The notes under the pieces were generated by a model. That model did no database searches. It was not told where the DNA came from and worked only from the letters and a program-made list of their open reading frames with translations. Shown here one piece after another: positions 23,046 through 47,730 of a stretch of DNA of 64,000 nucleotides; positions within the stretch are counted from its first letter, which is position 1; each line of letters starts with the position of its first letter. The DNA is taken from NCBI RefSeq assembly GCF_053078305.1, contig NZ_CP166879.1; one strand, 5' to 3'. Made by a program: the position numbers and the translations under genes.

Positions 23046-25727
23046 TTAGCCTGACAGGCCTGACAAAAACGCGCCCAACTTCCCTTCTATATCACTGTCT
23101 ATAGTACGTAATCTTAGCAATGGCAGACCACATTTCTTCAGTATACTGTTTTTAAGTTCATCACGTTCAGCCTGGACACTGGTCAGATGATAGCCTCCAT
23201 CCACTTCAATAACCCCTAATGGAGTCTTCCCGACCTTATAGTAAACAACAAAGTCACAACTGGCCCGATTACGCATGAATAACAGTTCACGGTGAGTAAA
23301 ATCTCCCCGCTCCAGCAACACCAACTGATTCAGCGCTATTTGTGAATGAAACATCATGCTCCGATAACTATCCTGCGACAGGATATCCCGCAACAGGCAG
23401 GCCACAATCTGTTCTGACTTAAAGCGTGAATCATCTGAATTCAATCTACTATTCAGTCGTTCCAGTGATTTGTCATACTCACTGTACAGCAAATCAAATG
23501 CTGATATCACCGGGCTCTCGAAAATCTCTCCGTCATCAGCGTAGTATCTGATGTAACGAATCAGTGCCGCAATATGTCCAGCGTGGCGTTCAAATACATC
23601 ATTACCAGTCACCAACGTAAATTTGTTTCGGGCCCTTGAAACAGCGACATTCACCAGTTCAGGATTATCAACAAACGCGATATTCCGACTTTGCTGGCTG
23701 CTGCGTTTCTTATCCAGCACAGTGGAAAACACAATTTCATCGCACTCCCGTCCCTGAAATTTATGCACCGTCGATTTCACAAAATCAGCGGGCAGCACTG
23801 TTTCAGCCAGATTAACCTGTGCATTATATGGGGCGATATATCCCCTGCTACTTTCCTCATCCCAGTAATGTCCTTCCAGAGATTCAAGCTCCCTGAGATT
23901 TGAAAAATTACGGGTATGGTTTCCTTTTGCCGTGATGATCAGAGATAATGAGGCTTCACCTGAATCAAGCGTTAGCGGTATCAGAGCATTATCATAAAAC
24001 TGCTTATTACAAAATTGAATGATTTTAGGATGACAGCGATAATGCTCTTTAAGAAGAGTTACTGGCACCATATTCCTGAACGACATACAAACCGAATCAA
24101 GTAGACTATATTTCTCACAATTATAGTATTCTGCCGGTGGAGATGGGCTGTTCGGGAGTAATACAGGAACATGTGGAAGTTGCTTTCGATCCCCTACAAC
24201 GATTACATTACGGGCACATCCTAGTCCCAGAATGCCCGGAACAATATCCTGCTGTGAGGCTTCATCAATAATCACATAATCAAGAAGAGCCCCCTTACCG
24301 ATAGAGTTAATAATAGAATGCGTGCTGCTACCAATAACCGGAAAACGCTTTATAAAACGGTTAAATTCATCCCTGTATGTCTCTGCCGAGAATGAATTTC
24401 TTGTTGAAATATTTCTTCGCAGATGTTGTTTTAAATAAAGCACAGACCATGATGTCAGGCGCTCCAGTAAAATTTTAAAATCAGATTCCTTTAATACTTT
24501 CTCATATTCATTCAAAGAAATTTGTTTTTCCCGGATGGATTTTTCATAATAAGAAAGCTGAAGAGAAGTAAATAGTGCCAGCCTTCTCTCCGGAATCACC
24601 AATGGTTTGACTTTCAGTATCCTGAAGTTTAACAACAAATCAATTCTGTTTCTGAATCCAATCCGCCTGTCAGAAAGGTAATGAATATAAGCCATCAGGT
24701 CAGTTGTTTTTCGTGAGGAAAGTCGGTATTTGTGAGAAAAAAGCTCCTCCGGTCGAAGATTCTGACTCTGCCATTGCTGCAGGTATTTATACTCAACACT
24801 CAGTTCATTAATTTCTGCTTTTAACGAAGCAACCTGGTTGATAGCATTCAGGTGTTTTTTCACTTGTTGAAGTACATCATCAATCATATTTGCAGACGGT
24901 GAGTCAGGTAAGACTTCCTCAGAACGCGAAATCGACGTTGAAAAAAACTGTTGTCTGTTCTCCGTACTTCCCAGTCGTGCCACCACATATCCCAGTCGTT
25001 GTTTGTCCATTTTTTCATAAACATTACTGACAGCTGAGTTATTATTGGACAAAATTGCCACTGTTTTATTCTGAATTAATATATTGGCAACAATATTGAG
25101 AATAGTCTGTGTTTTACCTGTCCCAGGTGGTCCTTCAATAACTGAAATCTGTGAGGAAAATGCCCGTTCAACCGCCATTAACTGACTCTCATTCAGGCCA
25201 AACGGAAAAATCAACCCCCATGGCGAATCACGTTTTTTACTCTGTCCTGAACAGTATGCATGCAAGGCGGTATCCGGATGAGGAACTATTTTCTTTATCT
25301 GTCTGAGGATATTCTCATCGATATTTTTATTATTACCTCGAGCATAAAAAACACGTTCGTCAGCCACCCTGCACAAGTAATTAAACACGGCATGCTCTGT
25401 AAATGCTGAACACTGTTGAAAGTCAAGTCCGGTCGTTTTCATGATGTAGGGTCGTTCGCTCTCACGGTAATAAACAGCAGCATATTTATCACCATAGATA
25501 ATAACCCGTTCAGCCCGGGATGTTACAGCGTTCCCTTTCCTTTCGAGGAAAACATTTCGCAAAATTACAGTTGGCGTTATCTGACATACAGAAAGCGGAC
25601 GAGTATATTTTTTCCCGCTGCGAAAATGACAGGTCAGCATAACCTCTCCGTCATCATTTCCAGCCCACAGAGTCCAGTCGGTAATTTTATGAGTCTTATT
25701 TTCACCGTCAACACAAATCGTGACCAT
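23046..25727 (-). CDS. Superfamily-1 helicase fused to a C-terminal PD-(D/E)xK (DUF2726-like) nuclease domain; candidate defence protein
   Basis: 893 aa; Walker A GPPGTGKTQT, Walker B/motif II VIIDEASQ, further SF1 Upf1/DNA2-like motifs (VGDRKQLPHV, HYRCHPKIIQF, STVHKFQGRECD, VAVSRARNKF); C-terminal VIEVDGGYH...ERDELK...GLPLLRL; N-terminal ~180 aa unassigned. Confidence 0.75.
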   Translation of the reverse strand: MVTICVDGENKTHKITDWTLWAGNDDGEVMLTCHFRSGKKYTRPLSVCQITPTVILRNVFLERKGNAVTSRAERVIIYGDKYAAVYYRESERPYIMKTTGLDFQQCSAFTEHAVFNYLCRVADERVFYARGNNKNIDENILRQIKKIVPHPDTALHAYCSGQSKKRDSPWGLIFPFGLNESQLMAVERAFSSQISVIEGPPGTGKTQTILNIVANILIQNKTVAILSNNNSAVSNVYEKMDKQRLGYVVARLGSTENRQQFFSTSISRSEEVLPDSPSANMIDDVLQQVKKHLNAINQVASLKAEINELSVEYKYLQQWQSQNLRPEELFSHKYRLSSRKTTDLMAYIHYLSDRRIGFRNRIDLLLNFRILKVKPLVIPERRLALFTSLQLSYYEKSIREKQISLNEYEKVLKESDFKILLERLTSWSVLYLKQHLRRNISTRNSFSAETYRDEFNRFIKRFPVIGSSTHSIINSIGKGALLDYVIIDEASQQDIVPGILGLGCARNVIVVGDRKQLPHVPVLLPNSPSPPAEYYNCEKYSLLDSVCMSFRNMVPVTLLKEHYRCHPKIIQFCNKQFYDNALIPLTLDSGEASLSLIITAKGNHTRNFSNLRELESLEGHYWDEESSRGYIAPYNAQVNLAETVLPADFVKSTVHKFQGRECDEIVFSTVLDKKRSSQQSRNIAFVDNPELVNVAVSRARNKFTLVTGNDVFERHAGHIAALIRYIRYYADDGEIFESPVISAFDLLYSEYDKSLERLNSRLNSDDSRFKSEQIVACLLRDILSQDSYRSMMFHSQIALNQLVLLERGDFTHRELLFMRNRASCDFVVYYKVGKTPLGVIEVDGGYHLTSVQAERDELKNSILKKCGLPLLRLRTIDSDIEGKLGAFLSGLSG

Positions 25728-27765: not shown

Positions 27766-27819
27766 CGGCAGATTCAGTGTTGCTGTATCAAATCATAATT
27801 AATATTCCCGGAAAGAGCG

Positions 27820-28128
27820 TCAGTGTAATACCGGTACCCGGGAAAGGTATTCCACCGCACGGATGATTGCCGGTGTCACATCCCACCGCCGCTTCAGAAC
27901 CGCCAATAACTCACTGAGTGTTCTGATATAACGTTCAGTGAACAGTCGCTGCCCGTCCCTGGTTAAATGAAAACCGGACTGATTACAGGTAATGGTAATA
28001 TGGCAGGCATCATTACCAATATATACGGCTTCCTGTGGCCTGAATCTGACATTCCAGTGCCAGGAATACGGAGCATGATTCAGATAAAAAAGGCGCATCT
28101 GGATGTCATTAAATAACGGGTTCATCAT
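27820..28128 (-). CDS. Hypothetical protein within the T6SS operon (102 aa)
   Basis: ATG start; between tssE and the vasL-like gene; no recognisable motif. Confidence 0.5.
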   Translation of the reverse strand: MMNPLFNDIQMRLFYLNHAPYSWHWNVRFRPQEAVYIGNDACHITITCNQSGFHLTRDGQRLFTERYIRTLSELLAVLKRRWDVTPAIIRAVEYLSRVPVLH

Positions 28129-28177
28129 TCAGCCCTCGTTTATGTCTGTTAAGCACACGGATAAGGGGAACCATAAA

Positions 28178-28627
28178 TCACCCCCTGAAAGTCATCACAT
28201 TATCCACAAACTGCTGTTGCTTCAGATATCGCAGTAACACCCTGCCCTCCGGCATAAAAGTTGTTCCGTAACGAACCAGTCCTGCATCTTTAAGTTCTGC
28301 ATCAATGACATAATGCAACTCACCAGGCTGAGTCTGTTCCTGCATCGTCACCCCGACACGCTTAATACGTGGCTCATACTTCAGCAGAACATCTGAAAGC
28401 ACACACATCAGTTGATGCGCCGTTCCCGGCATTCCCTGCAGAATGCTTGTCATATCCGGCAGACCATAATCCGGAAGATGTTTAAGGCTTCCGGCCCGGG
28501 TATTCAGAATACGCTGCATGTTATCGAGCACCGAAAGAATAACCTGCTCTTCCTCACTGACCTGGTTTAACTCCAGCCCGCCAGCGAAATTGCCATAGAG
28601 AATTTCATAAAGGGAAGGACGCGGCAT
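28178..28627 (-). CDS. tssE: T6SS baseplate component TssE (gp25-like)
   Basis: 149 aa from the internal ATG (ORF-track start is an upstream GTG); conserved SVLDNMQRILNTR...DYGLPD region. Confidence 0.8.
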   Translation of the reverse strand: MPRPSLYEILYGNFAGGLELNQVSEEEQVILSVLDNMQRILNTRAGSLKHLPDYGLPDMTSILQGMPGTAHQLMCVLSDVLLKYEPRIKRVGVTMQEQTQPGELHYVIDAELKDAGLVRYGTTFMPEGRVLLRYLKQQQFVDNVMTFRG

Positions 28628-28629
28628 CA

Positions 28630-29166
28630 CTATTTATCCTTCACCGGTAACAGCGTCAGGGTGTTACCGGATACTTCAATAAGACGGGGCGTGTCCGGCT
28701 CAAGCTCATCCCGGCTCAGCACCACCCGCCAGGTATTTTTCTTCCGGTCAGGCTCCAGAAACATTGCTGCCACACCGGTAAATTTCGCCGCATCATCCAG
28801 AGGCATATCCACGGCCACTGAACCACCTGGCTGCAGCCATACATCTTTCTGTGCAATGATATCGCCTGCCAGAATTTCACTGTCCCCCGTAAAAAGCGCC
28901 TGATAATCCGCGCTGTCAAAATTCCGGTTGTCTTTAAGCTGATAAATCCGCACCACAACCGACAGGGGAATACCGGCAGCACTGGTGTTAATGGCCTCCC
29001 TGGCACGAATATCAAGGTGAAGTGTTTTTATCTGTCGGTAAAACAGGGATTTCGTGGCAGATACCGTACCGTCTGCCACTCTTTGCGTCAGGCCACACCC
29101 TGATAACGACAGGGAAAACAACGCAATAATCAGACCGTAACCAGTCTTACCAGCGATAATCGCCAT
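28630..29166 (-). CDS. tssJ: T6SS outer membrane lipoprotein TssJ
   Basis: 178 aa; lipobox LSLSGC; size and operon position typical. Confidence 0.8.
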   Translation of the reverse strand: MAIIAGKTGYGLIIALFSLSLSGCGLTQRVADGTVSATKSLFYRQIKTLHLDIRAREAINTSAAGIPLSVVVRIYQLKDNRNFDSADYQALFTGDSEILAGDIIAQKDVWLQPGGSVAVDMPLDDAAKFTGVAAMFLEPDRKKNTWRVVLSRDELEPDTPRLIEVSGNTLTLLPVKDK

Positions 29167-47610: not shown

Positions 47611-47730
47611 GTTATTCACTCACTGTCAGAAGACCTTCAGACACGCTACCGCCCTTCGCCATAACCCGGGCGCATCAGGTCTGTGTTCAGGACTGAGAAT
47701 TCTTTCTTCAGCACCCGCCAGCAGATACTG

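Follow-up and report, generated by a model that had tools for sequence, protein, structure and literature searches.

The window analyzed here, a stretch of 64,000 nucleotides from contig NZ_CP166879.1 (assembly GCF_053078305.1), contains a type VI secretion system (T6SS) cluster of the EAEC Sci-1 (T6SS-1) type. Between tssE and tagA of this cluster lies a small ORF, which is a genuine protein-coding gene subject to strong purifying selection. We regard it as a candidate accessory gene of the T6SS, an undescribed family in a familiar role, with a narrow lineage distribution. From the position of the gene and its decay together with the T6SS, we tentatively infer that its product could well be a non-essential, lineage-specific accessory protein acting with TagA and TssA at the sheath-termination step. 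The coordinates of the gene and its surroundings are given in Table 1.

In a near-identical genome, the genes of the cluster are arranged in the order Hcp, TssH, VgrG, Tle1-EAEC, Tli1, PAAR, TssM, TssA, TssF, TssG, TssJ, TssE, the small gene, and the ImpA_N/VasL gene. The small ORF, tssE, and the ImpA_N/VasL gene are all located on the minus strand of the window, which they share with tssJ, tssG, and tssF further upstream of tssE. A terminator scan of the stretch from tssE through the small ORF to tagA detected none on the minus strand, and a promoter scan of the tssE–small-ORF region returned one weak promoter-like match, not above chance. The gene thus has the placement by which T6SS accessory (Tag) genes are recognized: it lies inside the cluster, is co-oriented with the core genes, and is not separated from them by a terminator. 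The initial annotation had placed it between tssE and a vasL-like gene on the same strand; the ORF and Pfam calls agree with this location, with the strand now corrected to minus and the neighbor better named TagA. The architecture that defines TagA consists of ImpA_N, a hydrophobic region, and VasL (PMC6745524). The TssA of the window cluster is of the long type (532 aa, ImpA_N and VasJ). In EAEC, tagA bears the locus tag EC042_4550. In all E. coli loci examined, including EAEC 042 (L003:4071-5438), PGAP/RefSeq splits tagA into two or three pieces labelled partial or pseudogene (one with ImpA_N, one called 'POTRA' or hypothetical, and one with VasL). The reading frame is actually intact, at 454-465 aa, as in the window and in EAEC 042, and the splitting is a systematic artefact of annotation by which a functional gene, already studied experimentally, is hidden. 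Elsewhere in the cluster, between tssA and tssF, the window carries another ORF (31973-32770, minus strand), annotated in other genomes as a 230-aa 'type VI secretion protein' or as hypothetical. Its product is hydrophobic and membrane-protein-like in appearance and belongs to no Pfam family. In L001, L026, and L031, only a 117-nt pseudogene fragment of this ORF is left, and in L025, L032, and L033 it is unannotated; the T6SS clusters concerned otherwise look intact.

Table 1. Location of the small gene and of neighboring features (window coordinates, unless a locus is named).
Feature	Position	Strand	Remarks
Small gene	27820..28125	-	101 codons + stop; ORF, conserved second ATG, RefSeq, dN/dS, AF2
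Codons 42-55, H42-x-T44 and H53-x-T55	27960..28002	-	From alignments; the family's most conserved polar feature
Intergenic region from tssE to small ORF	28126..28177	-	GAGGG Shine-Dalgarno 4-7 nt before ATGATG
Spacer from small-ORF stop to tagA start, 54 nt	27766..27819	-	Length fixed except in L014 (55 nt)
tssE, baseplate gp25-like subunit	28178..28630	-	Pfam GPW_gp25, TIGR03357; upstream neighbor in the window haplotype
tagA, 454 aa	26401..27765	-	ImpA_N 8-109 (PF06812, 4e-17), VasL 302-443 (PF12486, 3e-38)
tssE/small-ORF cassette	L003:1-3646; L016:2438-5575; L023:10154-13935		Absent from the window haplotype
Members of the 156-aa family	L016:2438-2908; L019:4525-4890; L020:6436-6906; L018:4759-4983		

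The ORF listing of the window contains a minus-strand ORF of 102 codons with an ATG start at 27820..28128, and no other ORF of at least 50 aa overlaps it on either strand. The start codon was examined by translation of ten homologous loci. The codon at the first ATG (28128) is variable, encoding M, A, I, or T, and the second ATG (28125) is invariant. Nucleotide homology between haplotypes also starts at the second ATG, and in most E. coli genomes the megablast match begins where the start codon of the small ORF sits. This allowed us to conclude that the gene begins at the second ATG and encodes 101 aa; of the earlier description as an ATG-started gene of 102 aa, the start codon type holds and the length is one residue shorter. 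In a 99.6%-identical genome, the RefSeq product is likewise a 101-aa 'hypothetical protein' (WP_001068590.1), and in EAEC 042 (L003) the copy directly upstream of tagA is EC042_RS31355 (WP_001420595.1). Residue numbers below follow the 101-aa protein; only the secondary-structure ranges of the AF2 model are given in 102-aa numbering. The protein has a molecular mass of 12.1 kDa and a pI of 9.5, as computed from the sequence, and its physicochemical properties reveal no signal peptide, transmembrane segment, or hydrophobic segment.

The selective constraint on the gene was determined by the Nei-Gojobori method. Between T6SS-positive strains, dN/dS was 0.05-0.13 at a dS of about 0.5, and the comparison of the window with EAEC 042 gave 24.5 synonymous and 9.5 non-synonymous differences. 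The 17 T6SS-positive loci supplied 13 distinct alleles, and over 71 pairs of these omega had a median of 0.077 (range 0.026-0.223), with dS reaching 0.6. Across deeply diverged alleles, synonymous changes outnumber non-synonymous ones 2-4-fold when simply counted and more than 10-fold when taken per site. The constraint is at least equal to that on tagA (omega 0.16-0.18) and tssE (0.11-0.28). The fractions of invariant columns at the first, second, and third codon positions were 0.82, 0.91, and 0.49, respectively, and no Rfam family was matched in the region.

The integrity of the small ORF was compared between loci with and without a T6SS. It was intact in 17 of the 18 T6SS-positive loci versus two of the eight T6SS-less remnants (Fisher p = 0.0008, with shared ancestry ignored). 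All 17 Sci-1-type loci with core genes and a full-length tagA contain an intact copy, among them all eight loci that were chosen through tssF and thus picked without regard to the small ORF. In four of the T6SS-positive loci with an intact small ORF, the adjacent GIY-YIG nuclease gene is frameshifted, which indicates that the region is old enough for lesions to accumulate. The two remnants with an intact copy are L002 and L010, the latter with an omega raised to 0.26-0.27 relative to its closest relatives. The lesions in the other remnants were a frameshift (L007), a 29-nt deletion allele present in about 356 genomes (L009), a stop at codon 4 (L024, shared with the contaminant contig L011 described below), an IS insertion (L015), and a frameshift in E. 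albertii (L012); the EAEC 042 paralog is degenerate. Within the remnants, the small ORF and tagA decay independently, as tagA is intact and the small ORF broken in L024 and the reverse is true of L002 and L010. Some E. coli genomes contain fusion ORFs (P0029 and P0039) in which the N-terminal half of the small protein is continued by a C-terminal portion of TagA. They were probably made by deletions spanning the module and would be another sign of remnant decay.

These data bear on the objection that the small ORF is non-functional and a chance survivor in recently acquired DNA. Such a reading would agree with the 'hypothetical' label given to the product in all databases, with the frequent disruption of the ORF in remnants, and with a ribosome-binding site that is weak or absent in most haplotypes. 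It does not agree with the synonymous excess across deeply diverged alleles, with the retention of an intact frame in nearly all T6SS-positive loci while neighboring cassette genes gain frameshifts, or with the confident fold predicted for the product by AF2. We consider it barely credible, and the selection analysis has effectively refuted it.

The second possibility concerns the region downstream of the small ORF. In every locus examined, the small ORF precedes tagA at a distance of 54 nt, or 55 nt in L014, whatever stands further upstream. In this spacer, 63% of the columns are invariant, compared with 49% of those at third codon positions. Conservation is high in the 3' half, and tagA has no evident Shine-Dalgarno of its own. 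The fixed distance, the conserved 3' half, and the missing Shine-Dalgarno are features expected if the small ORF acted mainly in cis, as an upstream frame or leader that sets tagA expression by being translated, the peptide itself being unimportant. This explanation is very improbable in view of the strong amino-acid constraint (omega about 0.08, second codon positions 91% invariant). A confident globular domain is also predicted, a fold that a leader role would not conserve, and full-length homologs with 31-34% identity exist elsewhere.

Homologs were sought among 5.8 billion proteins by a word-indexed search and among 1.84 billion cluster representatives by an exhaustive search with an HMMER profile. 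In these collections, they were restricted to Escherichia, a few records with a Salmonella or Enterobacteriaceae label, and three metagenomic singletons; a second profile search including the distant members added no further homologs. Two other matches, P0032 and P0035, are repetitive proteins and were judged spurious. Identity to the metagenomic homologs (P0033, P0036, and P0038) is 31-34% along the whole protein. These homologs come from contigs of 0.5-2.3 kb with no informative neighbors and no T6SS context on them, and one of the three has a signal-like N-terminus. A degenerate-motif scan of metagenome contigs returned only the contig already found. In a tblastn-confirmed scan of one genome per species (100,044 species), the small ORF was detected only in E. 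albertii, where it is frameshifted, and in a 'Collinsella' MAG. The MAG sequence (L011, JAIJJM010000548.1, 'Collinsella sp.') is a 2.2-kb contig carrying tagA and a small ORF with a stop at codon 4. It shows 87-95% nucleotide identity to the window, and the contig is almost certainly E. coli contamination of the MAG. The literature was searched with the locus tags and WP accessions, and no mention of the small ORF was found by these terms. Judging from the RefSeq locus-tag numbering, the gene appears to be missing from the originally numbered EC042 genes.

The distribution within E. coli and its relatives was also determined. The small ORF is present in 645 of 5,426 complete E. coli genomes and a Sci-1-type tssF in only 68, so most copies reside in decayed T6SS remnants. 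TagA homologs, mostly 41-44% identical, were found on 109 plasmids of Enterobacter, Pantoea, Rahnella, Klebsiella, and other genera, and only one of these, a Citrobacter plasmid with a TagA 88% identical, carries the small ORF. Its absence from the other 108, whose clusters share the gene order, indicates that TagA is generally independent of the small ORF. The small ORF is missing from the related tssF-tssG-tssJ-tssE-tagA clusters of Rahnella, Pantoea, and Enterobacter; in Rahnella, tssE and tagA are separated by a 12-nt gap, and in Enterobacter an unrelated gene occupies the slot. The link to the T6SS is universal in the 17 Sci-1-type loci and was also seen in loci labelled Salmonella, in the Citrobacter plasmid, and in a paralogous remnant. 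One variant-type cluster, L022 (NZ_LR882057.1), has a stop at W22 of the small ORF together with intact tssM, tssA, tssF, tssG, tssJ, vgrG, and tssE and a 456-aa tagA. The lack of the gene in the clusters of three other genera and the stop in L022 indicate that the small ORF is lineage-specific and not essential to the T6SS in general.

The picture given by the initial annotation can be refined on this basis. A small conserved uncharacterized gene inside a T6SS operon is indeed what we found, on the same strand, with no terminator in between, and with an integrity that follows T6SS presence. Of the accessory or regulatory role suggested there, gene position and co-decay make the former a tentative reading. 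Membership in the T6SS core, implied by that annotation, has to be abandoned, as the product matches no core profile, the clusters of Rahnella, Pantoea, and Enterobacter do without the gene, and L022 combines the nonsense allele with an intact core and tagA. Conservation in related T6SS clusters extends to the Escherichia-type Sci-1 lineage (17 of 18 loci intact) and not to the three other genera. Absence or disruption of the ORF in homologous clusters, which had been named as the observation that would count against the gene, was encountered in part, in the clusters of the other genera and in L022.

A further small gene was observed at the same junction. An uncharacterized family of 156 aa is encoded near tssE and tagA in Enterobacter, Rahnella, Scandinavium, Lelliottia, Pantoea (degraded), and some clusters labelled E. 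coli or Salmonella. Its genes, like the small ORF, are short and annotated as hypothetical, and in several genera they keep to the tssE-tagA junction, upstream of tagA in Enterobacter and downstream in Rahnella. The two families are, however, unrelated in sequence (hhalign probability 0.15%, no BLASTP hit). The gene in the Enterobacter and Pantoea slot was considered as an analogue or replacement of the small ORF and rejected, as it is unrelated and the two coexist in L016 and L017. We regard the 156-aa family as a separate accessory candidate.

In contrast to the fixed downstream order, an alignment of the upstream regions showed three unrelated junction types. In the first, limited to the window, L001, and near-identical genomes, tssE is followed by the GAGGG Shine-Dalgarno. 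In the second, tssE is followed by a different AT-rich junction (L008, L014, L022, and L027), and in the third, found in EAEC 042 and most others, the small ORF is preceded by the end of a helicase cassette. Accordingly, the small ORF stands directly after tssE in the window, L001, L008, L014, L022, and L027, and after a nuclease/helicase cassette in L003 (EAEC 042), L016, L021, L023, L025, L026, and L028-L033. Most haplotypes lack an obvious Shine-Dalgarno upstream of the small ORF. The cassette, present in most Sci-1 clusters and equivalent to the EC042_4546-4549 region, encodes a YdcA-like protein, a GIY-YIG nuclease whose gene is often frameshifted, and a NERD/UvrD '3'-5' exonuclease'. EAEC 042 carries a second copy of the region (L003:33455-34495) beside the Sci-2/aai cluster, in which a degenerate tssE fragment, the small ORF, and tagA fragments are directly adjacent. 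It contains the most diverged copy of the small ORF (76.5% identical) and gives evidence of an older or paralogous copy of the tssE–small ORF–tagA arrangement. This adjacency suggests that the order tssE, small ORF, tagA is probably ancestral and that the cassette was inserted later. The idea that the small ORF is cargo of the cassette was rejected, since it is retained without cassettes in the window, L008, L014, and L027 and in the oldest paralogous remnant.

The sequence composition of the region was also distinctive. A local peak of divergence extends from about 28300 to 27715 and covers the 3' end of tssE, the small ORF, and the spacer; within it, the window and L008 are 74-89% identical, versus 96-98% in the flanks. 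The GC content is 0.47 for the small ORF versus 0.54 for tagA, and the dS of the small ORF (about 0.5) is about threefold that of tagA and about sevenfold that of tssJ, with omega staying near 0.08. The lower GC and higher dS suggest that the small ORF has a history separate from its neighbors. One possibility for the divergence peak is that ancient alleles have been shuffled by recombination at the cassette junction. On the other side of the module, just downstream of tagA, the window encodes an 893-aa helicase/nuclease-like protein (23046-25727, minus strand) that matches the PADLOC profiles of Mokosh MkoA (E 4e-43) and MkoC (2e-41). In other strains, the slot beyond tagA holds Zorya II (L023), Qat (L024), OLD-TOPRIM and UvrD (L016), or AAA ATPase/ATP-dependent nuclease genes (L026, L030, and L031). 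The end of the T6SS cluster beyond tagA looks like a defence-island hotspot.

The main rival to an accessory role follows from this setting. The small ORF may be a functional gene unrelated to T6SS firing, a passenger at a recombination or insertion hotspot kept by linkage and by its own selection. Its product could then be, for instance, an enzyme or ligand-binding protein of small size that employs the paired HxT motifs described below, or it could belong to the defence-type cassettes flanking tagA, as a component or as a regulator. It does sit at a junction where nuclease/helicase cassettes come and go, with strain-dependent Mokosh-like, Zorya, Qat, or OLD/UvrD systems beyond tagA, and its divergence peak and low GC fit such a place. 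The distant homologs without T6SS context on their short contigs, the polar His/Thr patch conserved at 31-34% identity, the intact frames in the T6SS-less remnants L002 and L010, and the excess of 645 carriers over the 68 genomes with a Sci-1-type tssF point in the same direction. Even so, we judge a passenger gene somewhat unlikely. The gene stays where cassettes are absent and in the oldest paralogous remnant, and it decays in most T6SS-less remnants, including the deletion allele of about 356 genomes, which is unexpected for an independent, generally useful function. The product also has no PADLOC or PHROG match and no fold match to 2H or other phosphoesterases.

The structure of the protein was predicted with AF2. 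From an alignment of only 14 sequences, a confident model was obtained (pLDDT 88.2, pTM 0.80), and a second, independent run gave the identical topology, which consists of a helix (4-15), five antiparallel strands within 27-66, and two further helices (71-80 and 86-97). The initial annotation had found no assignable motif, and the family searches bear this out, as Pfam, NCBIfam, and a profile search of PDB sequences gave no match and PADLOC and PHROGs returned 0 families at E <= 1. A Foldseek comparison, which had been proposed there, was run with the AF2 model and gave no convincing fold match in the PDB (best E 0.14, TM <0.4) or in BFVD (best E 0.04, all matches being uncharacterized proteins). 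The predicted alpha/beta fold is thus without a convincing relative among PDB or BFVD (predicted viral) structures. On the same results, known anti-phage defence and phage families were discarded, there being no PADLOC or PHROG profile match and only uncharacterized BFVD matches.

The most conserved polar residues of the family are H42-I-T44 and H53-L-T55, which in the AF2 secondary structure lie on the adjacent antiparallel strands beta3 and beta4. Trp22, Tyr35, and Gly37 are also invariant. These features are kept in the three metagenomic homologs and in the most divergent T6SS-positive allele (L030, 74% identical). I43 and I45 are invariant hydrophobic residues that alternate with the polar ones, which suggests that the His and Thr residues are placed on the helix-free face of the sheet; in the model, the four residues may therefore share one exposed face. 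Two H-x-T/S-x motifs are a hallmark of 2H phosphoesterases, and the small protein has both. The assignment to this superfamily was nevertheless rejected, as the protein lacks the fold of about 180 aa in which each of two lobes carries one motif and has no similarity of LigT/CPDase type; no fold match to 2H or other phosphoesterases was obtained. A polo-box-like (PB3) domain was also dismissed, since neither the six-stranded sheet with a helix nor significant structural similarity was found.

A small cytoplasmic binder could also serve as an orphan immunity-like or antitoxin-like protein that neutralizes a T6SS effector or another toxin no longer encoded nearby. Effector-immunity pairs are present elsewhere in the T6SS cluster, and no cognate effector gene lies beside the small ORF, whose neighbors are tssE or the helicase gene upstream and tagA downstream. 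Its identification as a T6SS immunity protein was rejected for lack of this adjacency, and we regard the orphan form of the idea as improbable.

The accessory role can be described in the form of a model. The product would be small, soluble, and cytoplasmic, with an alpha/beta fold not described before. Its gene forms with tagA a fixed two-gene module of the Escherichia Sci-1 (T6SS-1) cluster, and the two are probably transcribed together, within the accessory part of the operon that depends on RfaH and ops. In EAEC, the stretch EC042_4546-4549 consists of accessory genes belonging to an RfaH/ops2-dependent 'accessory gene operon', and mutation of ops2 impairs sheath assembly without abolishing it (bioRxiv 10.1101/2025.02.08.637259). 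In the window, a consensus ops element (GGCGGTAG) was found at 47653 on the minus strand, between hcp and clpV, at the position reported for ops1, an RfaH-dependent element of the EAEC sci1 cluster. The ops2 element, located between EC042_4547 and EC042_4548, has no counterpart in the window because the cassette is absent. The small protein might then act as a protein-binding adaptor or modulator of late T6SS assembly, either in the 'stop and hold' step of TssA and TagA at the distal end or in its timing. Contact would be made through the exposed face of the five-stranded sheet that bears the conserved His, Thr, Tyr, and Trp residues, and loss of the protein would be expected to lower T6SS efficiency without abolishing it, as does loss of tagA.

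The docking of the two proteins was assayed by AF2 prediction of a fusion of the small protein, a (GGGGS)6 linker, and residues 1-135 of TagA, with genome-paired alignment rows. Both domains were folded, the linker was disordered, and no docking was observed (pTM 0.41) in this crude experiment, which covers the ImpA_N domain only. We take the result as weak negative evidence on docking to the ImpA_N domain of TagA. The boldest version of the proposal, that the small protein is the first member of a new family of T6SS accessory proteins, has a new fold, and is a missing third player in the most thoroughly studied model of sheath termination, is unlikely in our estimation. Such a player would have been overlooked since older annotations may have skipped the gene and PGAP fragments tagA.

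EAEC Sci-1 is the reference model for the stopping and holding of the sheath by TssA and TagA, and a conserved, selected gene welded to tagA offers a specific and inexpensive candidate for a modulator that may be missing from this step. The phenotypes of existing ΔtagA or polar constructs and of the ops2 mutant could in principle involve the small ORF. The gene is also a case of a lineage-specific ORFan with a new predicted fold that is fixed inside the operon of a conserved machine. Should it be irrelevant to secretion, it would still represent a small protein family that has no known relatives and in which a double His-x-Thr patch is conserved. Its practical importance is modest, since the gene is restricted to one T6SS lineage found in about 1% of complete E. 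coli genomes.

The closest point of reference among known accessory proteins is TagA of EAEC, the anchor with ImpA_N and VasL domains that stops and holds the extended sheath, which is encoded in the same module and on the same strand. Like the small gene, tagA is missing from many T6SS clusters, and hence neither belongs to the core. A tagA mutant is cited as keeping about 12% of the activity (PMC6730261, citing Santin 2018). The two proteins are not related in sequence or domain content, the small protein being without ImpA_N, VasL, or a hydrophobic segment, and they differ in distribution, as TagA is widespread in Enterobacterales and Vibrio and the small gene is confined to the Escherichia-type Sci-1 lineage. 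TagA, TagB, and TagJ are non-essential partners of TssA-type proteins (PMC6730261, PMC7896307). TagB and TagJ are recruited by short TssA and stabilize the sheath from the baseplate; each thus partners an ImpA_N-family protein and tunes sheath stability, and since the two are unrelated in sequence to each other, such partners arise independently (PMC7896307). The small protein shares no sequence similarity with either and may be compared with them in kind, as all are small, soluble, lineage-restricted, and encoded within T6SS clusters, with TagB and TagJ being non-essential. TagB and TagJ belong to systems with a short TssA and no TagA, whereas the window cluster combines a long TssA with TagA.
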